Source of the DNA: Candidatus Moraniibacteriota bacterium
GTDB lineage: Bacteria; Patescibacteriota; Minisyncoccia; Moranbacterales; UBA1568
Assembly (NCBI GenBank): GCA_016699875.1
Contig: CP064989.1
Span: 584,788 to 648,787 of the forward strand
Reading direction: 5' to 3'
Length of the DNA: 64,000 nucleotides
The notes under the pieces were generated by a model. That model was not told the origin of the DNA. It made no database searches and worked only from the letters and a program-made list of their open reading frames with translations. A program made the translations under genes and the position numbers. This document shows, in pieces, positions 8,704 to 54,014 of this stretch. Each line of letters begins with the position of its first letter. The first letter of the stretch is position 1.

Positions 8704-9930
8704 ATGGATGACGCTGAAAATTCAAAAAAAAGAAGAGTATGTCGTCCCATGCTGACCAATATTGACTTCTTTGGAAAAGAGCTTTCCGAGAGTGAATTTA
8801 ATGGTTTGTGGGGAATTTTCGATACCCTCTCGGAGGAAGTAAAAGATATTTTGACGACGCCAGAAATGTCGCGAAGAATTGAGTTGCTTCAAAAAGAACG
8901 AGGCCTTTCGGACGAGCATATTGAAATTATCTCGGCGATTATCCGTGAATATTTTCTTCGGAATAAAGATGTAATCTGGCTTCAGGATGCTCTCACGCGC
9001 AGACTTGATCAGAAAGACGTGGTATTTGTGAAAGAGTATATTCAAAAGAATATTCTTACGATTAAGCCAGTTCCTAGGGTGCTGTCAGAAAATGATGGGT
9101 CTTCGGCGGTGCAAATTGTCCAACTTCCGCTTCTGGATGCATTGGCGAAGTATCAGCGGCTGTCGGAGCAAACAGTGACGGATGATCGTATCAGTGTGAA
9201 GGGGGAATCTGCGCCGGTTCGGGGGTCGATTCGGAATTGGTTGCGGCACTATCGTGATGCGGTGGGTATTCGAAAGCACTCGACAATGGAACGAGGGCAA
9301 TTTCTCTTTCAGGGAGAGAATACGAGGCGACTGTCTGCTCAGGATCGGGAAAAAGTATCTTTTCTTCTCAAGGCGCTCGATGAAAATACCCCAGTGCCAA
9401 TTGATAGCAATCGTCAAGAACTGATGTTTCCCGCGTTTCAAGATCGGGGAAGCGTCAGTACGCAACCGGTGACGGAGACTTCTGTTCCGGCGCTCGAGAC
9501 ATCATTTCGTCCATTGGAAAAGTTTCCAGCACAGGCGGCGCCTATTCAGAAGGCGCTTGAATGGAAATCGAAAGAGAAAAAAGAAAATATACCAAATCAA
9601 CCCCCTCAGCCCGGTGGAATATCCGCCCCGGTGTATGCTTCAGTCGCACCTTTTCAGTCAAAAGCTCCCGCTAAAGGGGGTATGAGTTTCAGCTCGAGCC
9701 ATGTGCTGCCGCATGAGAAGGAACAGGAAGCAACGAAGAGTCGACAGAATTCAATTTCACATGTGTCGGAGAGTTCTCGCGATCCGGAAGCAATTAGTGT
9801 CATTCGACCTCGCAGAAGTCTTCATGGTGCTCAGCGGGAGTCTGAATGGTCTCAGGGAAGTGGCTCTGACGCTTCTCGTGTGGTAAACTTACGGAGTTCG
9901 AGAGAGAAGAATATTCAAGGAAAGGTATAG
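8704..9930 (+). CDS. Hypothetical soluble protein (Ser/Pro-rich C-terminus) in the T4SS-like operon
   Basis: ORF 8686..9930; the ATG at 8704 ('MDDAENSKK') is the more likely start. No recognisable motif. Confidence 0.5.
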   Translation: MDDAENSKKRRVCRPMLTNIDFFGKELSESEFNGLWGIFDTLSEEVKDILTTPEMSRRIELLQKERGLSDEHIEIISAIIREYFLRNKDVIWLQDALTRRLDQKDVVFVKEYIQKNILTIKPVPRVLSENDGSSAVQIVQLPLLDALAKYQRLSEQTVTDDRISVKGESAPVRGSIRNWLRHYRDAVGIRKHSTMERGQFLFQGENTRRLSAQDREKVSFLLKALDENTPVPIDSNRQELMFPAFQDRGSVSTQPVTETSVPALETSFRPLEKFPAQAAPIQKALEWKSKEKKENIPNQPPQPGGISAPVYASVAPFQSKAPAKGGMSFSSSHVLPHEKEQEATKSRQNSISHVSESSRDPEAISVIRPRRSLHGAQRESEWSQGSGSDASRVVNLRSSREKNIQGKV

Positions 9931-43036: not shown

Positions 43037-43648
43037 TTAAGCGATACTTGCTTTTACGAGGAAGTCGCGCACGGTTTCGTCTGGTGTTTCGAAACCCGGG
43101 AGGTAAGAAACGGATTCGGAATAATCGATATCGTCGAAATATGCAAGCTGTTCGCGGAGGATTTTTTCGTTGAATTCGTTTCCAAACATTTCCCGAGTTT
43201 TTATCATGATATCGGTGAGAGAGGAATGATCTCTCAAGATGAAGTAAAGATCGACGTAGTCTTTCCATTTGGCACGGCGACCCAGGGCGAAGAGTTTCAT
43301 GGCGCCGAGCGTTTGGAGATTTGGCATGCGAAGTGTTGACTCGAACGATTCGGAAAAGTCGAGCGCATACGGATAACGAAGAAATGTAATCCGAACACCG
43401 CCAACAAGCGCTTCATACTGATCGAGTTCGTCCACAAAAACGCGTTCGATGGGAGCGAATGACCGAAGTTTTGATGTGATAGCAGTGTTGTCGAACGGTG
43501 ATATGGAAAACAAATCGAAGTCGATCGATCGCCGATGTCCGATAATGTAGGCAATTGCCGTTCCTCCAACCAAACCGAATTTTGAAGAAAAAACGGAGAG
43601 TGATGGTAGGATATTTCGCTGGGTAGCTTCAAGGATTTCGGGGTGCAT
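43037..43648 (-). CDS. AbiEii/AbiGii-family (DUF1814) nucleotidyltransferase toxin
   Basis: 'KFGLVGGTAIAYIIGHRRSIDFDLFS' matches the AbiEii NTase core (GGTAL...R.S.DIDF). The track ORF extends to 43876, but Met 43648 gives the typical ~200-aa size and a 20-nt overlap with the upstream small ORF. Confidence 0.55.
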   Translation of the reverse strand: MHPEILEATQRNILPSLSVFSSKFGLVGGTAIAYIIGHRRSIDFDLFSISPFDNTAITSKLRSFAPIERVFVDELDQYEALVGGVRITFLRYPYALDFSESFESTLRMPNLQTLGAMKLFALGRRAKWKDYVDLYFILRDHSSLTDIMIKTREMFGNEFNEKILREQLAYFDDIDYSESVSYLPGFETPDETVRDFLVKASIA

Positions 43649-43895
43649 GAGTGTCGAAGTAGAGAGTGAAGAAATGCCGGGTCTTCGAGGAGTAGTTTGA
43701 TCGAGGGCTGGAAACTTGTTCGCGGAAGACTCGTGCGGCGGATTCCATACCGACAAGCCGGAGCATTTCCTGGACATCATCCCAGTTTCCGGAGGTGAGT
43801 GTTGCTTCGATAATAGCTTCGTCGGACAGGTGAGTCGGGTCGTCGGTCCACCAGACAAAATACGGGCGATTCGCAATGAAGTTTTGGAGGCTCAT
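43629..43895 (-). CDS. Putative cognate antitoxin/partner of the AbiEii-like NTase (88 aa)
   Basis: Small upstream ORF overlapping the toxin start by 20 nt. No direct motif match. Confidence 0.3.
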   Translation of the reverse strand: MSLQNFIANRPYFVWWTDDPTHLSDEAIIEATLTSGNWDDVQEMLRLVGMESAARVFREQVSSPRSNYSSKTRHFFTLYFDTHAPRNP

Positions 43896-44029: not shown

Positions 44030-44641
44030 ATGGCACAGCAGTCACAATCCGATGCTCGTGAGACGAAACCGGTTTTGCCAGAGCATGTGCCGAGTGCGGT
44101 TGAGCAATTGGCTGACCGGGCGGCGAAGTGGATCGGCTCGGTGCCGTCGCTTCTTGCACACTCGGCGTTCTTTGTCGGGTCGTTCTCACTCTTTTTCTTT
44201 GGGGTTTCTCTCGATCACATTCTCCTCCTCCTCACGACGGTCGTGTCGCTCGAGGCGATTTATCTTGCCATCTTTATTCAAATGACCGTGAATCGCCACT
44301 CGGAAAATATCGAAGGGGTTCGGGAGGATATTGAAGACATTCAAGAAGATGTCGAAGATATTTCCGAAGATATTGAAGACATTCAAGAAGATGTCGAAGA
44401 AATCGGCGAAGATGTGGAAGGGATTCAGAAGGAGGTGGAAGAAATCGGAGACGATGTCGAAGATATTCAGAAAGACGTCGATGACATTCAAGAAGATGTG
44501 GAAGACATTTCCGATGATATCGAGAAAGAGGACTCGGAAGAAGATCGCGAACGACGCTCGACTGATGAGAAATTGGAAAAGATAGAAAGCGCGCTCCAGT
44601 CGCTTGTACGTGATATAGAAAGGTTGCGGAGGAGAGAATAA
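44030..44641 (+). CDS. DUF1003-family membrane protein with a C-terminal acidic heptad-repeat (coiled-coil) tail
   Basis: 'LADRAAKWIGSVPSLLAHSAFFVGSFSLFFFGVSLDHILLLLTTVVSLEAIYLAIFIQMTVNR' is the DUF1003 core. It is followed by about 10 units of 'EDxEDIQ'. Confidence 0.6.
   Translation: MAQQSQSDARETKPVLPEHVPSAVEQLADRAAKWIGSVPSLLAHSAFFVGSFSLFFFGVSLDHILLLLTTVVSLEAIYLAIFIQMTVNRHSENIEGVREDIEDIQEDVEDISEDIEDIQEDVEEIGEDVEGIQKEVEEIGDDVEDIQKDVDDIQEDVEDISDDIEKEDSEEDRERRSTDEKLEKIESALQSLVRDIERLRRRE
44303..44524 (+). repeat. About 10.5 tandem 21-bp repeats (consensus gaagatgtcgaagatattcaa) encoding heptads inside the DUF1003 gene
   Basis: Units at 44324, 44345, 44366, 44387, 44408, 44429, 44450, 44471, 44492 and so on, seen directly. 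Confidence 0.8.
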
Positions 44642-45219: not shown

Positions 45220-47877
45220 CTATGATGTTTCCGATGGGGCGGTGGTCTTTACGTCTTTCGAGGTTTTGACTTCGTTGCCGTTATTGTCTTTGAGGCGAGC
45301 TTCGACGGAGAGGGTGTCGCCGCGCTTTCCATTGGGGATGGCGTAGGTAGTGGAGAGTGAGTCGCTACCACTCGAGTCTACTTTGTCTCCATCAACGAAT
45401 ATTTCCAATGAGTCGACGCCATAGGGCGCATCGCCTTCGGCAGAAATGGAGAACGACGCATCTGAGGTTTCGCTTGGGACGGAGAGAGAAATGCTCGGTC
45501 CGAACTTTGAAGAAAAGTCTTTCTCGGAGCACTTCTCCGTTGGTGGGCTTTCGAATATGACCTTCTTGTCTTTGCCGTACCATTCTTCGGCAGCTTTATC
45601 CCAGAGTTTGTATTGCGGATCGCGATCGGGCTTGTCGGGAATGGGACCGCGAGGATCGTTTCGGTCGACATAGAAGAGGATGTCGTGCGGACTGATGAAA
45701 TCGCGCTTGAACTGTTCCTTTTCCGGACAGGCATCGCTTGCGAGGCAGAGATTGTCGCTTTTTGGTATCTCGCAAACCTTTACACCTTCTTTCTTCTCAA
45801 TCCATCCACCGAGGAGTGGCTTCGTGATTTTGGGGAAATGCGGATCGAGTGGATCATCTGTTTGATCGGTTGTCTCTGTTGTTTCAGATGGGGCGTTTTC
45901 TGTAGCGGTATCGGTGCTGTTGTCGGACTCGGTTTCTTTGAGATCGCCGTCATTGTCGCGCGGTACGATCTCATCGTCCGGATTGTATTTCGGAAATTCT
46001 TCGACGGCGGTATTCTCGAGCGCCTTGTCCAGAAAGGCTCGCCAGATGGGAGCGGCTACATAGGAGCCGTCGGAGCCGGGTTTCATGGGGGTGTTGTCGT
46101 TGTTTCCCGCCCAGACGCCAACAGCGAGAGAGGGAGTATAGCCGATGGTCCAGGCGTCGCGCCACTCATTCGTGGTGCCGGTTTTGGCGACAACGGGTCG
46201 ATTGTCAAAACGAAGCGGGCTGTTGGCGCCGAAGACCCAGGCTCGGTTGTCATTGTTGGAGAGCACAGAGTCGAGCATGGCAACGAACTTCTCGGCAACG
46301 ATGCGTTCGCCGGGAGAATCTTGGTATTCCTCTTGTACTTCGCCCTTGGAATTTTCGATGCGAAGTATGGCGGTTTTCTCGTGCTTAATGCCTCCGGTTG
46401 CCAGCGTGGCGTAGGCGTTCACATGGTCGAGCAGCTTCACTTCGCCGCCACCCAAGACAAGAGAAAGTCCGTAGCGATCTGGCTGATTGAGTGTCGTGAT
46501 GCCGAGATTTTTTGCGAGTGTGATGGCATCTTTCACGCCAACCAAATAGAGCACTTTGACAGCGGGAATGTTGAGCGAGCCGCCGAGCGCCTTCATGAGT
46601 GCAATGGGACCATGAAAAGTGCCGTCATAGTTTTGCGGTTCATAGGACTTGCCGTCGTCAGTGGAGAAATTTGTGGGCACATCGTAGAGAACTGTTTCGG
46701 GAACATAGCCTTTGGTAAAGGCATCGAGATAGACATAGGGTTTGAAGGATGATCCCGGTTGGCGGTCTCGGATGGCGACATTGACCTGCCCGTCTATTTT
46801 GGTATCGAAGTAGTTCTTCGATCCGACCATGGCGAGGATCTGTCCGGTTTTGGGATCGATGGCGACGAGCGAGGCATTCTCGGCATTGTAGCGAAGGTTT
46901 TTCTCGGCACCTTCGGAGACGGCTTGTTCGGCAGCTTGCTGTTTATCCCAGTCGAGCGTGGTAATTACTTTGAGTCCACCTTGCTCGATTTGGTCATCGC
47001 CATAGTGCTTGGCGAGGTATTCTTTCACGTACATGACGAAGTGCGGCGCTGAAATCTGTTCGTGCTGAGGGGTGAGTTTTTCGAGTGTATCAATCGCCTT
47101 TGCTTCATCCGCCTGGTCGGCGGTGATATAGCCAAGGCTTGCCATGGCGGTGAGTGCCTTGGCTTGGCGCGCTTTGAGCTCTTCGAGATGTGATCCGTAG
47201 GGAGAGTAGTAGGTTGGCGCATTGGGGAGCGAAGCGAGGAGGGCGGACTCGTCGAGTGTCAGGTCTTTCGCGTTTTTGCCGAAGAACGTTTGCGCTGCCG
47301 CTTCGAGTCCGTAGGCGTTTGAGCCATAGGGGATTTCATTTAAGTACATCGCGAGAATTTCGTCTTTCGAAAATTTTTGCTCCATTTCGACGGATAGTAT
47401 CGCTTCCTTGATTTTTCGCGTGAATGTTTTTTCCGGCGTGAGAAGGGAATTCTTTACAAACTGCTGGGTGATAGTGGATCCGCCCTGCTGGGCACCGCCG
47501 CCGACGAAGTCTTTGAAAACGGCGCGCATGATGGAGGAGAACTTGATGCCGTGGTGGGAATAGAAATCCTGATCTTCGAGCGTGATCGTTGCCGCGCGAA
47601 CCGTTTCGGGCATTTCGGAGAATGGGATGATAGTGCGCTTTTCTTCACCGTGCACTTCATAGAGGAGATGCTCTCCGGTGCGATCAAGTATCTTGGTCGA
47701 TTCAGCAATAAAGCGCGCGTTGACTTTTCCGGGACTCGGAAGGTCTTTGGCGAAGTAAGCGAAGACGCCGATAACGGAAATCACGCCAGCCAGAAAACAT
47801 CCGAGGAATATTCGGAGCACCCATTTCCAAAAGCCGGATTTTTTCTTGGGCGATGAAGGGGATAGAGACTTCTTCAT
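45220..47877 (-). CDS. Class A penicillin-binding protein (PBP1A: GT51 transglycosylase + transpeptidase) with a low-complexity C-terminal extension
   Basis: GT51 'FYSHHGIKFSSIMRAVFKDFVGGGAQQGGSTITQQFVKN'. Transpeptidase 'SSFKP' (SxxK), 'SLN', 'KTGTT'. Signal-anchor 'WKWVLRIFLGCFLAGVISVIGVFAYF'. The 47877 start is preferred over the track's 48069. Confidence 0.88.
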   Translation of the reverse strand: MKKSLSPSSPKKKSGFWKWVLRIFLGCFLAGVISVIGVFAYFAKDLPSPGKVNARFIAESTKILDRTGEHLLYEVHGEEKRTIIPFSEMPETVRAATITLEDQDFYSHHGIKFSSIMRAVFKDFVGGGAQQGGSTITQQFVKNSLLTPEKTFTRKIKEAILSVEMEQKFSKDEILAMYLNEIPYGSNAYGLEAAAQTFFGKNAKDLTLDESALLASLPNAPTYYSPYGSHLEELKARQAKALTAMASLGYITADQADEAKAIDTLEKLTPQHEQISAPHFVMYVKEYLAKHYGDDQIEQGGLKVITTLDWDKQQAAEQAVSEGAEKNLRYNAENASLVAIDPKTGQILAMVGSKNYFDTKIDGQVNVAIRDRQPGSSFKPYVYLDAFTKGYVPETVLYDVPTNFSTDDGKSYEPQNYDGTFHGPIALMKALGGSLNIPAVKVLYLVGVKDAITLAKNLGITTLNQPDRYGLSLVLGGGEVKLLDHVNAYATLATGGIKHEKTAILRIENSKGEVQEEYQDSPGERIVAEKFVAMLDSVLSNNDNRAWVFGANSPLRFDNRPVVAKTGTTNEWRDAWTIGYTPSLAVGVWAGNNDNTPMKPGSDGSYVAAPIWRAFLDKALENTAVEEFPKYNPDDEIVPRDNDGDLKETESDNSTDTATENAPSETTETTDQTDDPLDPHFPKITKPLLGGWIEKKEGVKVCEIPKSDNLCLASDACPEKEQFKRDFISPHDILFYVDRNDPRGPIPDKPDRDPQYKLWDKAAEEWYGKDKKVIFESPPTEKCSEKDFSSKFGPSISLSVPSETSDASFSISAEGDAPYGVDSLEIFVDGDKVDSSGSDSLSTTYAIPNGKRGDTLSVEARLKDNNGNEVKTSKDVKTTAPSETS

Positions 47878-48155
47878 AGCGTCCTGTGGGAGATTGACGG
47901 TGCCAAGCGGTCCGCGGGAAAACGTTGGTATATAGCGGCGACGGGAGAAGCGCGCGCACCAGCGTCCGACTGCCGAATCGGCGAGCCGGGAGGGAAGTGA
48001 ATCCGGATCTCTCCGAAGCCGTTGCCAGGCATCTCTCGCCTCTCGGATGACCTTCTGCAGATGCTCCATTCGTTTGAAGAAAAGCGTATTCCCAAACGGA
48101 CTCTGTGCGCATGTCCGTCAGATTACCCACATTGTAGCGCGGAGAAGCGGTTGGT

Positions 48156-50120
48156 TCAAGGAGCTAGAATGAATTGATCTTTCATTCTTTCCCATATCTT
48201 AAGGCAATAATATTTCGGAGTTTTTATATCTTCAGGATTAAGGAATCCACTTCGAAGAAGAAATGTAAGGGCGTTCAAGTTTGCCCCACCAATGAAAACA
48301 TATTTTTCCAACCCATGTTTTTTTAACTCCCGAAAAAGTCTTACTTGTTCGAGATATACGGTGTCCTTGCTTTTGGCAAGAAATCCTTTCTGTGACGAAA
48401 GGTCTGATCCATCTTTGAAGAGACGCTGGGATCTATTAATGGATAGCCTAAGGTTTTTCCGCATTTCTTTTTTGAAATCTTCATCGGAAAGTGTCCCAGC
48501 TGATTTTTCTTGTCGAGGGATCTTCATGGCGCTCTCATAGAATTCTTTGACGCAATCAAGGTAATTTCCCCCGTCAATTTTTTTCTGCATAGCGCGAATA
48601 TAGTGCGGATGCGGCGGAGAGTTAAAGCCGAATGCTTCTTTGGAGACAATGTCTTGGTTGTTCATGGCTCCGCATTCGGCAAAAACTAATGACCGTCCAC
48701 TCCCGAGTTTTTTGAAAAGTCGAAGTGGTATTTTCGATCTATTTTCGTATTGAAGAACATGACCTTCTATTTCATGGGCAAGTGCTATTGATATAGCAGC
48801 TACAACAGATTTTCTACTGGTTCCGCACTGAATAATTTTTTTCTTTCCATTTACTGACATTGATGTGATCTCTTTTCGAGTAATAAATTGCCACTTATTA
48901 TCCGGAGCTGGACCGATTCTGTCCGGATCGTATTCCGATGCCGGTTGGTTGCTTAAAAGGTCGTAGGAACGAAGAGTTTCCTCGGCGAGTTCTCGCAAAT
49001 TCTCTTCAGAGATAGCAGTTTCGTCCCCTATCTTTTCCGGGTCGAGATTTTTTTTCACGATATTTTCTCGTTTACGGATTTTTCCTTCGTAGGATTCTTC
49101 TTCAATCTCCGAAGCAAATTGACTAAGTTCTTCCCCGACTTGTTGTCTCCATCCCGATGAAGTTTCTTCGTGCACTACGCCATGTATGAACTTATCGTAA
49201 CGCGAGAGGTTTGTTTCCGGCTGTTTCCGTATGAGTTCAAGTGCTGATTTTTCCGCTTCAGTTAGGTTTTCATGCCCAAGGAGTTCCGCTTTACGTTCAA
49301 TGTCAAAAATCGAGGAGGTGCTTTCCGCAATCATCTCATTGACTCTTGATTGGTAAAGCTGCAAAATATTGAGAAGAGTTTCCTGCTTAGGCGAGGAGGG
49401 GTACTTTTTTAGGGAGTCTTTCTGCCGCTTTATCTTTTCCTTGAATTGACGCAGTTTTAAAATTTTTTCGACGTTTTTTTCTGTGTCGAGGTGAATCTTG
49501 ACGGGATCGGGCATGAGTACGTTGTTGATTCTGATGGTTCCGTTGTGATCGGCAGTGTCAATGAGCGATGTAAATAGATTTGTGTCGCTGTAGTCTTGAG
49601 ATCGTCCAGCAATACCCATTCGTTCTTTTGATGAGAGGTGGGCGATGATCGGTGTGGCCTCATAGAGAAATCTTCGTATTGACTCTTGTGTGTTTCCAGT
49701 GGATTCTAGACTAATACCGGTTATTTTCTCAAAGTCTTTGCGACCCGCTTCAGTGAGAAGATATCCACTATAAAAAGTTGAAGATCTTGGTGATATATCT
49801 GATATACTTTCCAATATATCGCCGAGCAAGTCTTCCATGTTCTTTATTTCTTCGCGCTCTTCGAAAGAAAGTTGGATCTTTTCTCCTCTGCCACTATCAA
49901 AATCGGCAAGCGCCCGAATCTTTTCTTCGAGATGATCTGACGGCCGTTCCGGGTAAAATCCCCGTGGATCTCTTTTGTCATCTTGATTCTTCGGGAGGAG
50001 TTCCAATGAATTCATAGAAAATTTTTGTTTTTCGATTGGGCGCTTTGGATGGCTGCATTTATTTACTGGCTCGCTTTTCAAGAGATTCGAGAGTTTTTTG
50101 TATAAACAGTTCTGATCCAA
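48156..50120 (-). CDS. HExxH zincin-like metallopeptidase, DUF1704/MATCAP-like (gluzincin arrangement)
   Basis: 'IALAHEIEGHVLQ', with 'FAECGAMN' about 25 residues downstream supplying a third-ligand Glu. Long charged N-terminal region. An alternative start at Met 50015 would remove the overlap with the upstream gene. Confidence 0.5.
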   Translation of the reverse strand: MDQNCLYKKLSNLLKSEPVNKCSHPKRPIEKQKFSMNSLELLPKNQDDKRDPRGFYPERPSDHLEEKIRALADFDSGRGEKIQLSFEEREEIKNMEDLLGDILESISDISPRSSTFYSGYLLTEAGRKDFEKITGISLESTGNTQESIRRFLYEATPIIAHLSSKERMGIAGRSQDYSDTNLFTSLIDTADHNGTIRINNVLMPDPVKIHLDTEKNVEKILKLRQFKEKIKRQKDSLKKYPSSPKQETLLNILQLYQSRVNEMIAESTSSIFDIERKAELLGHENLTEAEKSALELIRKQPETNLSRYDKFIHGVVHEETSSGWRQQVGEELSQFASEIEEESYEGKIRKRENIVKKNLDPEKIGDETAISEENLRELAEETLRSYDLLSNQPASEYDPDRIGPAPDNKWQFITRKEITSMSVNGKKKIIQCGTSRKSVVAAISIALAHEIEGHVLQYENRSKIPLRLFKKLGSGRSLVFAECGAMNNQDIVSKEAFGFNSPPHPHYIRAMQKKIDGGNYLDCVKEFYESAMKIPRQEKSAGTLSDEDFKKEMRKNLRLSINRSQRLFKDGSDLSSQKGFLAKSKDTVYLEQVRLFRELKKHGLEKYVFIGGANLNALTFLLRSGFLNPEDIKTPKYYCLKIWERMKDQFILAP

Positions 50121-51003
50121 TCATAGCTTCTGTTGGAAAACCTATTTGATCGTTTAGTTCGAAAACAAAGGGCGTTGTCTTATTTTGAATCCCGAAATCT
50201 ATTGAATAGAGAGGGAAGTCATATTTTTTATCGAGAAGGGATTGAATTTCCCCTGTTGCTGTTTGTATAAATTGAGGAATGGCATCTAGTGGAATTTCTC
50301 GTATGGATCCGCCTTGCGCGACGTTGGCAAGGAGTGAGCCGGGTTTTGGCTCTCTTACGTGACTCAGGACAACCTCTCCATCTACAATAACAATGCGGAG
50401 ATCGTGGTGGGATTTGGCTATTTTTGGAATTCCGAGAGAGGTGTCGACAAACCCTTGAAGGGTGTATTCGTTGCCGTCTTCTATGTGAAATTGCGCTATT
50501 TTGCTTGGCGTGTCGATAAGAATGCCTTTCCCTTGCATGCCTCGGGCTGGCTTGAGGACAATCTTTGAATCTCTATTGCATTTCTTGATGCAAGTGGAAA
50601 GATCTCCTTGTGTGCGAATGCAGAAGCTTTCCGGCATGTATTTCCCCAGAATCTCTTTTTGGGCATTCTTGTCATTACAAAGCTGTTTAAATTCAATGCA
50701 ATTTAACACTTTGCTCCCGATTTCTTTCGGAGGGAAACCCAATCCTCCACTTCTATCGAAGATTGCGTCAGCACGTACTTCCCGTTGGTAAGGTTCGAAA
50801 TGGTCAGAATTATATACAAAAGTGTTTCTAAACAGTAGCGAGTGCCTGTGGTTTTCTTCTCCGCTCGCAATGAACATGTTAAATCCACGTAGAACTCCTT
50901 GCTGAAAAAACTTATGGTATACAGATCTCTTTGTTCCGAATGTTTCAAATGGATCGCGGGAGAGAGGGCGTTTTCGAAAATACATGACTATGTTCTTTCG
51001 CAT
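50059..51003 (-). CDS. ATP-grasp superfamily ligase
   Basis: 'KIVLKPARGMQGKGILI', 'DLRIVIVDGEVVLSHVR', 'SLLANVAQGGSIREI', 'FVFELNDQIGFP' follow the ATP-grasp fold order. Confidence 0.6.
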   Translation of the reverse strand: MRKNIVMYFRKRPLSRDPFETFGTKRSVYHKFFQQGVLRGFNMFIASGEENHRHSLLFRNTFVYNSDHFEPYQREVRADAIFDRSGGLGFPPKEIGSKVLNCIEFKQLCNDKNAQKEILGKYMPESFCIRTQGDLSTCIKKCNRDSKIVLKPARGMQGKGILIDTPSKIAQFHIEDGNEYTLQGFVDTSLGIPKIAKSHHDLRIVIVDGEVVLSHVREPKPGSLLANVAQGGSIREIPLDAIPQFIQTATGEIQSLLDKKYDFPLYSIDFGIQNKTTPFVFELNDQIGFPTEAMIGSELFIQKTLESLEKRASK

Positions 51004-51899
51004 AGGGCGAGATATTCAGAAAGTTTTTCAATTTCGTTTGAGATTTCTTCATCAAGTGTGAACTCCGGACAGCTATTTACCTCGAATATTATAGGAGAGT
51101 CTTCTTTGTTGATGACGACATCAACTCCTGCAACTTCTATATTGGTTGTCCTTGCCGCAAGAATAGCCGCTTCTTTTGCAACGAGTTCAACATGTGCTGG
51201 GTCTATAAATTCTTCGGTAGCGCCCAAGTGCACATTGTTTCTAAACTCTCGTCCGCGGTCTCGAACTTTTTTCTCGGCAACGGCGACAGTATTCCCTAAA
51301 ACAAGAAGTCTGTACTCAAATGTGTTATCTATGAATTCTTGAAGAAATAACATTCTTTTTTCCGGTAGTGCTTGTCTTTTATGGAGAATATCTTTTAAAT
51401 CCTCCCGGTTCTTTGCAAGAAAAACACCTAATCCGTGAGAAGTGTTCGATTCTTTTATGACCACGGGAAATCCAAGGTATTTGGAAGCATTTTCGATATG
51501 CGCATCTGTGTATGAGGGCGAGAAGTATGTCCTCGGGATTGGGACTTCAGCTTCCGCAAGGTTAAGCATTTGTACTATTTTGGCCGAATCGGAAGCGTCT
51601 TTGGTTTGCTTATGAAAAGGATCCAGAAATCGTATGGATGACTTTTCGCATGTCCGTGCCAATAGGTGTGCGGCGCATTTTTGTCGGCCAACTTTTCGCG
51701 GATAAATGGTTGACCATGTGGAAATGGGAAGGTTTTCTATGAGAACATTGACACTTCCTGGTTCTATAAAGAATTCCGTCTGTTCGAAATTTGATATCTG
51801 GTAGTCAATATGTAACTTTTCTAACTGCTTTTCAATATGTGTCAAGAAATCCCTCGATTTTGTGCTTGGGGATTCTTTGTCTAGTAGGAGGAGCAGCAT
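50988..51899 (-). CDS. RimK-like ATP-grasp ligase (alpha-L-glutamate-ligase family)
   Basis: 'LGFPVVIKESNTSHGLGVFLA', 'FLQEFIDNTFEYRLLVLGNTVAVAEKK', 'FRNNVHLGATEE', 'VAGVDVVINKEDSPIIFEVNSCPEF'. Confidence 0.7.
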   Translation of the reverse strand: MLLLLLDKESPSTKSRDFLTHIEKQLEKLHIDYQISNFEQTEFFIEPGSVNVLIENLPISTWSTIYPRKVGRQKCAAHLLARTCEKSSIRFLDPFHKQTKDASDSAKIVQMLNLAEAEVPIPRTYFSPSYTDAHIENASKYLGFPVVIKESNTSHGLGVFLAKNREDLKDILHKRQALPEKRMLFLQEFIDNTFEYRLLVLGNTVAVAEKKVRDRGREFRNNVHLGATEEFIDPAHVELVAKEAAILAARTTNIEVAGVDVVINKEDSPIIFEVNSCPEFTLDEEISNEIEKLSEYLALCERT

Positions 51900-51918
51900 A
51901 AATATTTGAGTTTATTTT

Positions 51919-53334
51919 TTATTTGCTGGCGTCTATGAGGAATTTCCGCAAGCTCTTTCTTCCAATAATAGCAGGATATTCAAGATGTGATCTTTCGACA
52001 ACACTTGCTTTTGAAGGGACGTCGATTCCATCAAGAATGAATGAAAGCGATATCTTCGGCCTCATGGTGAATCCGTTTGAAGCATACACAAAGGTAATAC
52101 CAGCGAGGTCCGGATGTACGCTTTTGTACTTCTTATCATATTCGTCGGAGAGGGCTCGAAGCTCAGATCTGTCTGCTGTATTGGGAGTGGGAATTGTTCT
52201 GAAAAACTCCAGCACATCTCCAAATCCCAGCTCTCGCGCGAGTTCGGTGTCGATGGAGGTGGAGTCGGCGCCGGTATCGATTTTGGCTTCTACTTCTATT
52301 TCCTTGCCGTTTCTCCCGATGAGCTTCACCTTTTCCACTGTGCCGATGATTTTCTTTCCGGAGATTTCTTCAAGTTCTTCTTCGATTTCACCGCCGAAGA
52401 GATCCATGCCCATGCGAATGCCTTTTTCAGCTGTCTTTATGGCGAGTCCGGCGACGCGTTCGAGACGGCCTTTGAGTCCGTCGAGATTGGCTACTTGGAT
52501 GGAGAGTCCCGGGCGGGCATTCAGTTCGAGGAAGACCGGACCGCGATCGCGATCAATCGCGATGTCGGCGCCCAAGAAGCCGAGCCCGGAGACTTGCTGC
52601 GCCTCGACGGCCATTTTGAGGATATCTTTCCAGTAGGGGATGCGGATACCGGAGAGGACGAGTCGGGTGCCGGGAATGTTTTCGATGATTCGATTCTTGC
52701 CCCAGACAGCGGTCGTGGTAGTGCCGGAAGCAAGGTCGATGCCGACGCCGATCGCGCCCTGCTGGAGATTGGCGCGCCCGCCGGATTCTTTTGTAGGAAG
52801 GCGGAGCATCGCCATGACGGGCACTTTGTTGTATACGACGATACGGATATCGGGGACGCCTTTGAATGTGTAGGGCTTGAAAAGTTTGAGGAGTTTGAGG
52901 CGCTCTTCGAAGAATGCGGAGTCGGGAATATTGGCAAGCGAGAATGAGCCGTCGAGAATATTCCTGATGTGTGTTTTGAGATCTTCGACCGTGACAAGTG
53001 ATCCGTCGGCTTTGATCCAGGTGTGCTCCGCATCTTTCTTTTTCCCGTATACAACCAAGATGCCTTCGCCACCGAAACCGTGATTGGGTTTGAGAGCGAA
53101 GCTTCCCGGGAGCAAAGACCAGTCGAAACTTTCCAAATCTTGCGCGGTCTTGACGCGAGCAAGAAGGGCGGGGACGGGAAGCTCGTTTTTTTTCAGAAGG
53201 CGTTTGCAGGCCATCTTGTCATCGGCAAGGCGCTTCGAACGGCGCCGATTGTACGGGCGCAGGTAGTCGAGGTTTCGCGCATTCATTCCAAGAATATTGC
53301 GACTCTTTTTCCAGGCTTCGAAAACATGAAACAT
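51919..53334 (-). CDS. Fusion protein: N-terminal RimK-like ATP-grasp ligase + C-terminal retropepsin-like domain ('putative ATP-dependent Zn protease', RimB-like)
   Basis: ATP-grasp 'SFALKPNHGFGGEGILVV', 'IRIVVYNKVPVMAMLR', 'ANLQQGAIGVGID', 'FLGADIAIDRDRGPVFLELNARPG'. C-terminal 'VEAKIDTGADSTSID' carries the aspartyl-protease DTGA motif. Start chosen at Met 53334, 11 nt after the upstream gene's stop. Confidence 0.65.
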   Translation of the reverse strand: MFHVFEAWKKSRNILGMNARNLDYLRPYNRRRSKRLADDKMACKRLLKKNELPVPALLARVKTAQDLESFDWSLLPGSFALKPNHGFGGEGILVVYGKKKDAEHTWIKADGSLVTVEDLKTHIRNILDGSFSLANIPDSAFFEERLKLLKLFKPYTFKGVPDIRIVVYNKVPVMAMLRLPTKESGGRANLQQGAIGVGIDLASGTTTTAVWGKNRIIENIPGTRLVLSGIRIPYWKDILKMAVEAQQVSGLGFLGADIAIDRDRGPVFLELNARPGLSIQVANLDGLKGRLERVAGLAIKTAEKGIRMGMDLFGGEIEEELEEISGKKIIGTVEKVKLIGRNGKEIEVEAKIDTGADSTSIDTELARELGFGDVLEFFRTIPTPNTADRSELRALSDEYDKKYKSVHPDLAGITFVYASNGFTMRPKISLSFILDGIDVPSKASVVERSHLEYPAIIGRKSLRKFLIDASK

Positions 53335-53345
53335 AGACGACAGTG

Positions 53346-54014
53346 CTACGATTTCAACAATTTCGAGAAACGCAGGTATTCCGAAAGGCGCAATCCTCTC
53401 CAGCGACCGAGGAATATATTTACGGGAATCGTGAGAAGAACGATCCACGGTGAAAGGAGAAGGATGCTGGCGAGTGCTTGAGAGCGCGCGAGGAAATACC
53501 CGACGAGCGAGATAAAGAGTGTCTCTGTCGCCAGAACAAGCGCGGTTTTGTCTCCCTTCTCGATTTGCGTGGCGACAAATTTCTCAACTAAGGTGATCAT
53601 GATAAGGAGCGGGAAAATGGAAACCGAAGCGAGTCCGGTTCGGTGGAGGTATCCACCGGCGACGAGTATGCCCAAAATGACGATCGCGACAATGGTAAGC
53701 GTGATGGCAACGCGCGGAAGATAGAGAAGGCGGAGTCGGCGGAGAACGAGTCGCGAGAGCATGCCGATGAGAATGATGCTTACAAAGATGGCGATGCCAT
53801 ATTTGAGACCTCCCGGATCAAAGGCAAGAAAAGCGAATGTAACAATCGATGGCGTGTAGATGCCAAATGCCTTGATGCCGATCACTTGCCGAAAAAAAGC
53901 GACGAGCGTGACAACGAGCGGAAACATGAGGATGTACCGGATCGTGTCGATGGGCACGCCCTGATCGACAAAATTAAGAAAGAGCGGATGAAGAGACATA
54001 GGATGGAAAATCAA
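53346..54014 (-). CDS. Seven-TM membrane protein, first gene of the ATP-grasp/peptidase operon
   Basis: 222 aa with seven clear hydrophobic helices. It resembles the 7-TM modules reported next to RimK-like ligases, but that is a recollection that cannot be verified here. Confidence 0.5.
   Translation of the reverse strand: MIFHPMSLHPLFLNFVDQGVPIDTIRYILMFPLVVTLVAFFRQVIGIKAFGIYTPSIVTFAFLAFDPGGLKYGIAIFVSIILIGMLSRLVLRRLRLLYLPRVAITLTIVAIVILGILVAGGYLHRTGLASVSIFPLLIMITLVEKFVATQIEKGDKTALVLATETLFISLVGYFLARSQALASILLLSPWIVLLTIPVNIFLGRWRGLRLSEYLRFSKLLKS

Follow-up and report, generated by a model that had tools for sequence, protein, structure and literature searches.

In 2009, Iyer, Abhiman, Burroughs and Aravind reportedly predicted neighbourhoods in which ATP-grasp peptide ligases occur with unrelated peptidases and a 7TM/transglutaminase protein; three Pfam families matched here, PF14397, PF14398 and PF14402, presumably stem from that work. 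The original prediction for the present locus held that no product or target was known for such systems, which is now partly outdated: the rlo trio of Pseudomonas aeruginosa, consisting of a 7TM protein, RloC and a retropepsin, has been described (Lormand et al., mBio 2025, PMC12239564). Regarding its activity, RloA cuts runs of at least eight Glu residues, and loss of rloB or rloC suppresses the loss of the rloA1-3 proteases; RloB was reported to be 96% proteobacterial (PMC12239564). The Rlo mutants of P. aeruginosa have cell-shape defects and are sensitive to cell-wall antibiotics; the authors speculate on peptidoglycan homeostasis, and also consider that the system could serve glutamate/polyglutamate homeostasis and osmoprotection (PMC12239564).

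As for other related enzymes, RimB stimulates RimK and cleaves poly-Glu, and RimK makes free poly-α-Glu in vitro (Little et al., JBC 2025, PMC11957791). The eukaryotic enzymes MATCAP/TMCP1 (KIAA0895L) and TMCP2 (KIAA0895), both of PF08014, are carboxypeptidases and deglutamylases (PMC10499314), which trim C-terminal residues and poly-Glu off acidic tails built by the ATP-grasp enzymes TTL and TTLL. Finally, CphA, with an ATP-grasp G domain and a Mur-ligase-like M domain, polymerises acidic amino acids in an iterative and primer-dependent manner.

The window, the whole stretch of 64,000 nucleotides analysed here, comes from a member of the Moraniibacteriota, a tiny uncultured bacterium, and carries what appears to be the Pseudomonas Rlo envelope-stress system in rearranged form, together with a seemingly imported trio of genes, two for further amino-acid ligases and one for a bacterial MATCAP relative. 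The cluster most likely builds and trims short acidic peptide chains, and, on balance, it is probably a membrane-associated composite system for ligating and trimming chains of acidic amino acids. By analogy with RimK and RloC, the RloC-type ligase would use ATP to add Glu (or Asp) stepwise to the carboxylate of an acceptor or primer at the membrane; the tethered aspartic endopeptidase would cut acidic runs, setting chain length or recycling the product, as RimB does for RimK; the two ligases of the accessory cassette, RimK2 and AG3, may add further residues that lengthen or cap the chain; the MATCAP-like metallo-carboxypeptidase may strip C-terminal residues, as MATCAP/TMCP do on acidic tubulin tails; and the 7TM protein could anchor, gate or export the product. 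The sequence analysis itself establishes the gene identities, the domain limits, the catalytic motifs, the constant 7TM-fusion pairing, and the variability and foreign base composition of the cassette; which residue is added and to what acceptor, which way transport runs, and the sharing of one substrate by all five proteins are inferred.

Gene layout and the 7TM-fusion core

ORF and profile checks confirmed all six minus-strand ORFs, with family assignments well beyond chance, and bore out the gene content originally predicted. The five cluster genes stand as proposed; the overlaps attributed to them reduce to a single one of 16 nt, between RimK2 and AG3. The coordinates first given were those of the longest ORFs; with realistic starts, the intergenic distances from the 7TM gene to the zincin gene are 11, 19, −16 and 43 nt. 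Regarding these starts, the ATG at 53334 yields a 471-aa fusion protein with 100% identity over its full length to a database protein, and the ATG at 50015 fits an identical database protein of 619 aa for the zincin. Promoter and terminator scans gave no signal above the shuffled background, and no candidate acceptor gene is visible within the cluster. GC3 is 0.38-0.39 in the three distal genes versus 0.57-0.61 in the core and the flanks: the locus is a composite of a conserved two-gene core and a cassette of foreign base composition, and we propose, as part of the preferred explanation, that the distal trio (RimK2, AG3 and zincin) was gained horizontally.

The first core gene (53346-54014, minus strand) encodes a 222-aa membrane protein with seven hydrophobic segments, which matches PF14402 (7TM_transglut, E 2.9e-29) and covers positions 298-507 of the 508 of the NCBIfam RloB profile (E 1.9e-25); it has 29% identity to residues 310-506 of a Legionella protein annotated as "inactive transglutaminase family protein", the RloB of a canonical rloABC locus. 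It is the C-terminal 7TM half of RloB only and lacks the periplasmic inactive-transglutaminase domain, and it has the basic C-terminal tail in common with RloB; in some relatives, a PKD domain takes the place of the transglutaminase domain. All 64 related loci examined for this have its gene immediately upstream of the one for the fusion.

The fusion (51919-53334, minus strand) starts with an RloC-type ATP-grasp domain (residues 1-313, 52396-53334) that matches PF14397 (E 3e-68, 230 bits) and TIGR02291, "alpha-L-glutamate ligase-like protein" (E 8e-86, 287.9 bits, cut-off 314.2), and that aligns over its whole length, at 40% identity, with the 314-aa RloC from the same canonical Legionella rloABC locus (E 6e-75). 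Unfused RloC stops exactly ahead of the acidic linker GGEIEEELEEISG (residues 314-326, 52357-52395), and homology to retropepsins begins immediately behind it. This linker occurs only in the fusion and hardly varies: of 76 fusion proteins, with identities as low as about 46%, nearly all retain the motif FGGEIEE-E(L/I/V)E(E/D)ISG. The architecture is widespread; at identities of 66% and higher it is found in more than 120 clusters.

The C-terminal part (residues 327-471 plus the stop codon, 51919-52356) is a RimB/RloA-type retropepsin-like aspartic peptidase domain; in phmmer it retrieved the structures 9g58 (E 4e-4), 9g59 and also 2pma, of which 9G58 and 9G59 are RloA crystal structures (PMC12239564). 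PF05618, the peptidase family initially suggested, is listed for most homologues and matches the window protein weakly. The catalytic DTGA is at 52267-52278, and D353-T354-G355-A356, K351, R425 and R448 are invariant across 37 homologues. The three basic residues align in columns with K26, R94 and R117 of the 9g58 chain; adding 20 to these chain numbers gives K46, R114 and R137, the RloA residues reported to contact poly-Glu (PMC12239564). RloA and the window domain have DTGA and these reported poly-Glu-binding residues in common.

With tight linkage and the three families PF14402, TIGR02291/PF14397 and PF05618 shared with rloABC of P. aeruginosa and other Gammaproteobacteria, the core is Rlo-like, although it departs from that system in several respects: the gene order is B-C::A instead of A-B-C, the host belongs to the Patescibacteria/CPR, and additional ligases in a variable cassette come after the core. 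Primary data underlie the present account of this cassette, of the fusion, of the missing transglutaminase domain and of the distribution in the CPR. Moreover, RloA is a separate, secreted protein, whereas the window retropepsin, being fused through the linker to the C-terminus of a cytosolic ligase, has no signal peptide; for this reason the CPR core may function differently from Rlo. In its cytosolic protease it resembles RimK-RimB and the fused RimBK, where an α-L-glutamate ATP-grasp ligase is partnered or fused with a cytosolic retropepsin-like endopeptidase in one compartment, with the differences that the protease domain of RimBK is N-terminal (residues 1-163) and that the window ligase is of the RloC subfamily and has an obligatory 7TM partner (PMC11957791 for RimK-RimB/RimBK).

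Accessory ligases and the variable slot

RimK2 (50988-51899, minus strand, 303 aa; GC 0.413, GC3 0.378) is the first gene of the low-GC cassette. It matches PF08443 (RimK, E 2.2e-28) and TIGR00768 (rimK_fam, 100.8 bits, cut-off 143.4); it falls in the RimK family, but differs from RimK itself in scoring only 63.6 of the 331 bits required by the S6-Glu ligase equivalog. AG3 (50059-51003, minus strand, 314 aa; GC 0.422) is a divergent ATP-grasp protein whose profile matches are weak throughout (rimK_fam 2.8e-11, GshB 6e-8, YheCD 1e-7), and its translation shows an E-x-N metal motif (FELN) and a glycine-rich loop. The two belong to ATP-grasp families 0 and 1, with 35 and 33 members, respectively, in the related loci. 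The scores of all the ATP-grasp genes stay well short of the equivalog cut-offs for Ddl, GshB, CarB and RimK, in keeping with the original view that they are not housekeeping enzymes.

In relatives, the slot occupied by these genes is hypervariable, with zero to four ATP-grasp genes from at least seven sequence families in shuffled order; 29 of 32 loci hold between one and four extra ATP-grasp genes. The predicted linkage of ligases and peptidases holds across genomes; as for the five genes, they do not form one conserved operon, as only the 7TM-fusion pair is invariant, and L003, the nearest relative (87-94% identity), is alone in having the full set again. The slot also holds genes for cyanophycin-synthetase-like, Mur-ligase-like and GNAT proteins, and unrelated ones, namely a GT4 glycosyltransferase and an AAA-ATPase/DUF4143 gene. 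The CphA-like proteins include G-domain-like (184 bits), M-domain-like (209 bits) and full-length (688 bits) forms; the ligases of the window itself do not exceed 42 bits, where the cut-offs are 850-877, and no cyanophycinase is present.

These genes bear on the proposal that the product is a polymer or peptide that stays free and serves storage or osmoprotection (poly-α-glutamate, a polymer resembling cyanophycin, or an acidic dipeptide with an N-acetyl group, for example NAAG or NAGGN), with no macromolecular acceptor and with the peptidases mobilising it. The CphA-like enzymes and GNATs of the relatives speak for it, together with the free poly-α-Glu made by RimK, the suggestion of the Rlo authors on polyglutamate, and the weak matches to N-acetylglutaminylglutamine synthetase of AG3 (6e-6) and of its GNAT fusion in L031 (3e-8). 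However, the latter are far under the cut-off (25 of 569 bits), CphA-like and GNAT genes are both missing from the window, and a purely cytosolic storage polymer would need no obligatory 7TM partner. We regard this proposal as doubtful; it is also a sub-case of the acidic-chain reading more than a true alternative.

Flanking genes and the cell wall

Downstream of the cluster, the class A PBP gene (45220-48069, minus strand) is a confident PBP1A (TIGR02074, E 1.5e-157, 525.6 bits, cut-off 508.75). The PBP1A alignments of relatives start at residues 58-74, which places the true start probably at M65 (47877) and leaves about 278 nt between the cluster and this start; PBP1A need not, then, share the transcript of the cluster.

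ATP-grasp D-aspartate ligases modify cell-wall precursors in some Gram-positive bacteria, and a similar role can be conceived here: the cytosolic ligases would attach residues of a side chain or bridge to UDP-MurNAc-peptide or lipid II, the peptidases would edit these additions, the 7TM protein would handle a lipid-linked intermediate, and PBP1A would polymerise the product. PBP1A lies within 6 kb downstream on the same strand in 27 of 32 related loci, some cassettes have Mur-ligase-like genes, surface structures typically show strain-variable cassettes, and the phenotype of the P. aeruginosa Rlo mutants (PMC12239564) fits as well. Nevertheless, RuvC, which has no envelope role, is equally conserved next to the cluster (43 of 49 loci); in L011 PBP1A faces the other way, and here it probably has an upstream region of its own; and neither gene was found beside the cluster in L010 or in L103 and L104, the most distant relatives with adequate flank on both sides. 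In addition, the Mur-ligase-like proteins fit the M domain of cyanophycin synthetase (209 bits) far better than MurE (78 bits), and no window ligase is Ddl- or Mur-like at equivalog level. This role is accordingly judged quite improbable, and the adjacency of PBP1A, formerly taken as a hint of envelope relevance, loses that meaning: with an unrelated gene equally conserved, it reads as synteny, from which no functional link can be drawn.

The MATCAP-like metallopeptidase

The last cluster gene (48156-50015, minus strand) encodes a 619-aa gluzincin that reaches no Pfam threshold; searches of Pfam and NCBIfam gave no match for the protein itself, Foldseek found nothing significant, and no signal peptide was detected. 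Its motif, first read as HExxH, is HEIEGH, an HExxxH (48759-48776), and the presumed third zinc ligand is E447 in FAECGAM (48663-48683). DUF1704, proposed earlier as a family to search, is now MATCAP (PF08014) and is the remote family of this protein, even though the protein misses its threshold. The atypical HExxxH and, downstream of it, a Glu ligand set in an E-x-G motif (TMCP1 has EEG, a bacterial relative that passes Pfam has QEGLA, and the window protein has AECGA) suggest a MATCAP-like enzyme, and the ligase neighbours parallel the TTL/TTLL enzymes that build the tails trimmed by MATCAP/TMCP. Differences are the identity of only 12%, some 300 additional residues, helical in character, at the N-terminus, and a setting without tubulin.

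Of the 21 species that could be assessed, 13 have the zincin next to an amidoligase, the ligases being of four different kinds, such as the CofE-type γ-glutamyl ligase in L021. Every enzyme family associated with the cluster, namely RimK, the CphA-like proteins of relatives and this CofE-type ligase, appears to handle acidic residues. In the remaining 8 species, and also in L001, no ligase is nearby, so that the zincin may act independently of them.

This independence would suit an unlikely alternative, in which unrelated modules have come to lie side by side at an integration hotspot between the core and PBP1A, with the 7TM-fusion pair as a system of its own, RimK2 (and AG3) as an ordinary S6-type or metabolite-type Glu ligase and the zincin as a general cytosolic peptidase. 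The foreign composition of the cassette, the restriction of the identical gene set to L003 and the unrelated glycosyltransferase and ATPase insertions agree with it. Yet the inserts are overwhelmingly amide-bond ligases, the spacing is very tight, including the RimK2/AG3 overlap, RimK2 is far from the S6 equivalog score, and the frequency of zincin-ligase adjacency is far over the few percent that we infer, as a rough estimate, for a random gene.

Finally, the zincin branch is small, with 534 representatives among 1.84 billion, and it looks restricted to the CPR, as all its organism-named matches are Patescibacteria/CPR or probably mislabelled.

A rearranged Rlo-like core

The six open reading frames that the original prediction had placed on the minus strand were confirmed in position, and they comprise the genes of a 7-TM protein (53346-54014), a ligase-retropepsin fusion (51919-53334), the ligases RimK2 (50988-51899) and AG3 (50059-51003), a zincin peptidase (48156-50015) and the class A penicillin-binding protein PBP1A (45220-48069). 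The frames of the fusion and the zincin are 509 and 654 aa long, respectively; because the database proteins, 100% identical to them, have 471 and 619 aa, the likely starts are 53334 and 50015, and with these revised starts the intergenic gaps are 11, 19, -16 and 43 nt. A scan for promoters and terminators over 44.5-54.7 kb gave counts inside the shuffled expectation.

Regarding the ATP-grasp genes, their assignment to housekeeping Ddl, GshB or CarB enzymes, which the original prediction had named among its refuting conditions, was rejected on NCBIfam scores: the models for Ddl, GshB, CarB, AccC and PurK reached 23-37 bits at best, far below their cut-offs of 243-1027 bits, so the proposal survived on this point.

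The 7-TM protein matched PF14402 (Pfam, E 2.9e-29), and the ATP-grasp portion of the fusion matched PF14397 (3e-68; 230 bits against a cut-off of 31.4) and TIGR02291, 'alpha-L-glutamate ligase-like' (8e-86; 287.9 bits, slightly below the cut-off of 314.2); this is the family of RloC, the cytosolic ATP-grasp protein of the Pseudomonas aeruginosa rlo operon, which also encodes RloA, a secreted retropepsin, and RloB, an inactive transglutaminase with a 7-TM region (PMC12239564). The comparison was made with an annotated canonical Rlo locus, on a plasmid of Legionella adelaidensis. The ligase domain had 40% identity, end to end, with the whole 314-aa Legionella RloC (E 6e-75), which finishes exactly at residue 313 of the fusion, and the alignment with the Legionella retropepsin begins at residue 327. 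The 7-TM protein aligned to residues 310-506 of the 508-aa Legionella RloB, basic C-terminal tail included; its 222 aa cover positions 298-507 of the 508 of the RloB profile, and score 89.6 bits where the cut-off is 900. From these boundaries, the window encodes an ectodomain-less RloB followed by RloC and RloA as a single cytosolic polypeptide.

This arrangement differs from the Pseudomonas system. The N-terminal periplasmic inactive transglutaminase domain, the ectodomain of RloB, was not found in the window protein, of which the 7-TM half alone is present. In addition, no separate secreted RloA was found: the retropepsin forms the C-terminal end of the ligase polypeptide, which is cytosolic, and it has neither a signal peptide nor a TM segment. 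As for known ligase-protease hybrids, RimBK carries its RimB domain N-terminal of RimK (PMC11957791), whereas the window fusion has the opposite order, ligase then protease, and its ligase is of the RloC and not of the RimK type. In two deeper relatives the 7-TM proteins are longer, about 520-545 aa (L083, 5458-7011; L098, 5383-7023), with an N-terminal PKD domain in place of the inactive transglutaminase domain of proteobacterial RloB; therefore, the RloB ectodomain is exchangeable or dispensable.

The C-terminal region of the fusion gave weak matches to PF05618 and RloA, the RloA1-3 models scoring 20-25 bits against cut-offs of 210-280, and the domain matched the RloA crystal structures (PDB 9G58 and 9G59). 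Its DTGA motif and residues K351, R425 and R448 are invariant in the fusion homologues, and these three residues share alignment columns with K46, R114 and R137 of RloA, reported to bind poly-Glu (PMC12239564).

Between the ligase and the retropepsin domains lies a linker of 13 residues, GGEIEEELEEISG (52357-52395, minus strand), nearly invariant in 76 fusion proteins (about 46-100% identity); such conservation is unusual and far above that expected of a passive linker. The linker is Glu-rich and adjoins a protease domain of a family that cuts poly-Glu, and it may act as a tethered pseudo-substrate or mark a point where the fusion processes itself. An AlphaFold2 model of the fusion, built with the aim of docking the linker, had a mean pLDDT of 64.5, with values under 50 in the linker region, too low to interpret.

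The ligase slot and the flanking genes

A survey of the fusion protein covered 80 metagenomic loci, with denominators of 64, 49 or 32 loci depending on the feature. The 7-TM gene was directly upstream of the fusion in 64/64 loci, RuvC was upstream in 43/49, and PBP1A was downstream on the same strand in 27/32; the zincin was present in 4 of 32, and the extra ATP-grasp genes numbered from 0 to 4 per locus. These extra genes make up seven sequence families, reshuffled from one locus to the next, and the exact five-gene set of the window was found in its nearest relative (L003) only. Within the window, RimK2, AG3 and the zincin have a GC content of 0.41-0.42 (GC3 0.38-0.39), against 0.51-0.53 (GC3 0.57-0.61) for the 7-TM, fusion, PBP1A and RuvC genes, with a sharp step at 48156-51899 relative to the flanks. 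Given the shuffled families and this step, the locus is a conserved two-gene core with an imported three-gene cassette, and the view of the five genes as one conserved operon was abandoned. A rival reading takes the genes as independent modules that share one integration hotspot. The GC content is also low elsewhere in the window, at ~6-8 kb, 30-32 kb and 34-36 kb.

As for the cassette ligases, RimK2 matched PF08443 (2e-28), and it scored 63.6 bits against the 331 of the S6--L-glutamate ligase equivalog NF007764 and 100.8 bits against the 143.4 of the rimK_fam subfamily, in both cases under the cut-off; AG3 is a divergent ATP-grasp with weak matches only, to RimK, GshB and YheCD. The acceptor of RimK is ribosomal protein S6 with its C-terminal Glu-Glu; the S6 gene, rpsF, is absent from the 64-kb window, where a tblastn search gave a match at E 0.45 only.

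The synthesis of a free storage or osmolyte polymer is another rival reading. With the cyanophycin synthetase models, whose cut-offs are 850-877 bits, no window gene scored above 42 bits. In the slot of the relatives, a frequent family is a homologue of the G domain of cyanophycin synthetase (184 bits; 8899-9888 in the related locus L005), and some loci have a Mur ligase resembling its M domain (209 bits; L064, 8489-9751) or a full-length CphA-like protein (688 bits; L057, 10319-12880); other loci have GNATs in the slot, either on their own or in fusion with AG3-family ligases.

PBP1A is a class A PBP (TIGR02074, 525 bits) that probably starts at M65, with ~278 nt left free upstream. Its adjacency, from which an envelope function had been proposed, is real and widespread; the functional argument was not retained, as RuvC, functionally unrelated, is an equally faithful neighbour. 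Both genes are absent beside the cluster in three relatives (L103, L104 and L010), and PBP1A is inverted in another (L011). The adjacency is therefore treated as clade-level synteny, compatible with an envelope role and not evidence for one. Modification of a peptidoglycan precursor by the cluster is a further rival reading.

Convergent with PBP1A, a gene at 44030-44641 (plus strand) encodes a 203-aa protein that is hydrophobic near its N-terminus and contains an extended, strongly acidic EDIEDIQEDVE-type repeat, but nowhere a run of 8 consecutive Glu; DUF948 was borderline, DUF1003 weak, and there were many coiled-coil false positives. Just past it, the product of 43037-43876 (minus strand) has an AbiEii-type nucleotidyltransferase toxin domain (PF08843, 1.9e-11).

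The MATCAP-like zincin

The zincin matched no family of Pfam or NCBIfam; PF08014 (MATCAP, formerly DUF1704), whose gathering threshold is 27 bits, gave no match even at E ≤ 10, and in 2 of the 28 family members it was just below the threshold (25.8 bits at best). The zinc motif, described as HExxH in the original prediction, is instead HEIEGH (residues 414-419), that is HExxxH with the catalytic Glu, and none of 28 homologues departs from H414, E415 or H419. Downstream, in the segment FAECGAM, E447 and G449 are also invariant and provide the E-x-G Glu expected as third metal ligand; hhalign aligned this segment with FQEGLAL in a protein above the PF08014 threshold. The arrangement is that of TMCP1, where the motif is HExxxH and the third ligand is the Glu of an EEG motif (PMC10499314), the counterpart in the window being AECGA.

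The profile of the zincin family aligned by hhalign to a distant PF08014-passing protein of Peregrinibacteria (98.4%, E 1e-14), with HEIEGHVLQ identical in the two, and the fold is of the MATCAP type; the term MATCAP-like rests on these two results, and the same profile found nothing relevant among the PDB sequences. The family is small, with 45 clusters in a search of 5.8 billion proteins and 534 representatives among 1.84 billion, and all its organism-named matches are CPR or probably mislabelled. The zincin gene was seen in MAGs labelled 'uncultured Bdellovibrionales' or 'Candidatus Saccharibacteria' (L003, L004, L005, L009 and L012), labels that are probably taxonomic mis-assignments; two of them, L003 and L005, have in addition the complete Moraniibacteriota-type block, from RuvC, 7-TM and fusion to PBP1A, with protein identities up to 87-94% for L003.

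The neighbourhood of the zincin family was surveyed in 25 species, 21 of them assessable for a link with ligases, which was found in 13. Six Moraniibacteriota-like genomes have the order RuvC, 7-TM, fusion, one or two ATP-grasp genes, zincin and PBP1A, and four more distant CPR genomes have a RimK-like gene paired with the zincin. In single genomes, the zincin is flanked by a TTL/RimK-like gene (L006), or the 7-TM-fusion pair is upstream of it with two unrelated genes (about 1.8 kb) between (L010), or a CofE/folate-type gamma-glutamyl ligase (TIGR04132, 197 bits; PF01996; L021, 8976-9695) directly precedes the MATCAP-like gene. This last case, from one MAG, combines a ligase fold unlike the others with the same peptidase partner. 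No ligase was near the zincin in eight species, nor in the related genome L001.

A second recurrent context, devoid of the Rlo-like core, was observed in three species (L006, L008 and L009), where the zincin is followed by a conserved run of genes, among them those of an MBL-fold hydrolase (PF13483) and of a DNA alkylation repair protein (PF08713).

A possible chemistry of acidic tails

In vitro, RloA of P. aeruginosa cleaves stretches of 8 or more Glu (PMC12239564, Lormand et al. 2025). When all three RloA paralogues are lost, the cells die under hypo-osmotic conditions, are misshapen and become sensitive to antibiotics that act on the cell wall, defects that are suppressed by deletion of rloB or rloC; beta-lactam sensitivity is part of the role ascribed to the system (PMC12239564). 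MATCAP/TMCP1 and TMCP2, in turn, take C-terminal residues and poly-Glu off acidic tubulin tails (PMC10499314).

Every enzyme family associated with the locus acts on acidic residues: the ligases are alpha-Glu enzymes of the RloC/RimK type, Asp polymerases of the CphA type and one gamma-Glu ligase of the CofE type, and the peptidases come from a poly-Glu endopeptidase family and from a family of carboxypeptidases that shorten acidic tails. The reading with the fewest assumptions is that of a membrane-associated machine in which the ligases would add Glu/Asp-type residues to an acceptor or primer, the endo- and exo-peptidases would control how long the chain is and how it ends, and the 7-TM protein would anchor, gate or export; since all the soluble components are devoid of signal peptides, the chemistry is cytosolic. 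In this machine we infer the residue added, the acceptor and the action of the cassette on the product of the core.

A bolder version, which we consider improbable, is that the Rlo-like core and the interchangeable cassette of Moraniibacteriota-like Patescibacteria would operate a reversible 'acidic-tail code', the bacterial counterpart of tubulin glutamylation and detyrosination, with the ATP-grasp ligases as writers, the retropepsin as endo-eraser and the MATCAP-like zincin as exo-eraser. The target of this code would be a membrane-proximal component of cell-wall synthesis or a lipid-linked precursor, the cassette would set the tail chemistry per strain, and the protease would be controlled through the near-invariant Glu-rich linker, either as its tethered pseudo-substrate or by self-processing there.

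In Pseudomonas, the Rlo system has effects on antibiotic tolerance, on the formation of biofilms and on cell shape, and the form in the window is simpler and rearranged; ligase and protease are in one polypeptide and the membrane partner is cut to its 7-TM core, which argues that both activities share one substrate and meet it on the cytosolic side, and offers a compact pair of genes to reconstitute. The ligases taken up as neighbours across many genomes, namely RimK-like, cyanophycin-synthetase-like and gamma-glutamyl ligases, point to acidic amino-acid chains. Moreover, MATCAP-like peptidases in bacteria repeatedly have Glu-type ligases as partners, so the ligase/carboxypeptidase pairing of the tubulin code may have prokaryotic roots.

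These observations are a lead rather than a discovery, and give testable handles on the products of Rlo systems. Neither the protein families nor the general theme is new, and the Rlo operon was described in 2025; a literature search on Patescibacteria with ATP-grasp or RimK had no such system among its top-ranked results, the best ten of 55 papers all lacking the word Patescibacteria. Three elements appear undescribed: the CPR architecture, in which the ectodomain is lost and the protease is fused C-terminally behind an acidic linker that does not vary; the slot of amidoligase genes, which is hypervariable; and the repeated occurrence, as a partner, of a divergent MATCAP-like peptidase of bacterial type. 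Finally, the split and complete CphA-like enzymes beside the Rlo-like core of CPR genomes are possibly worth a separate study.
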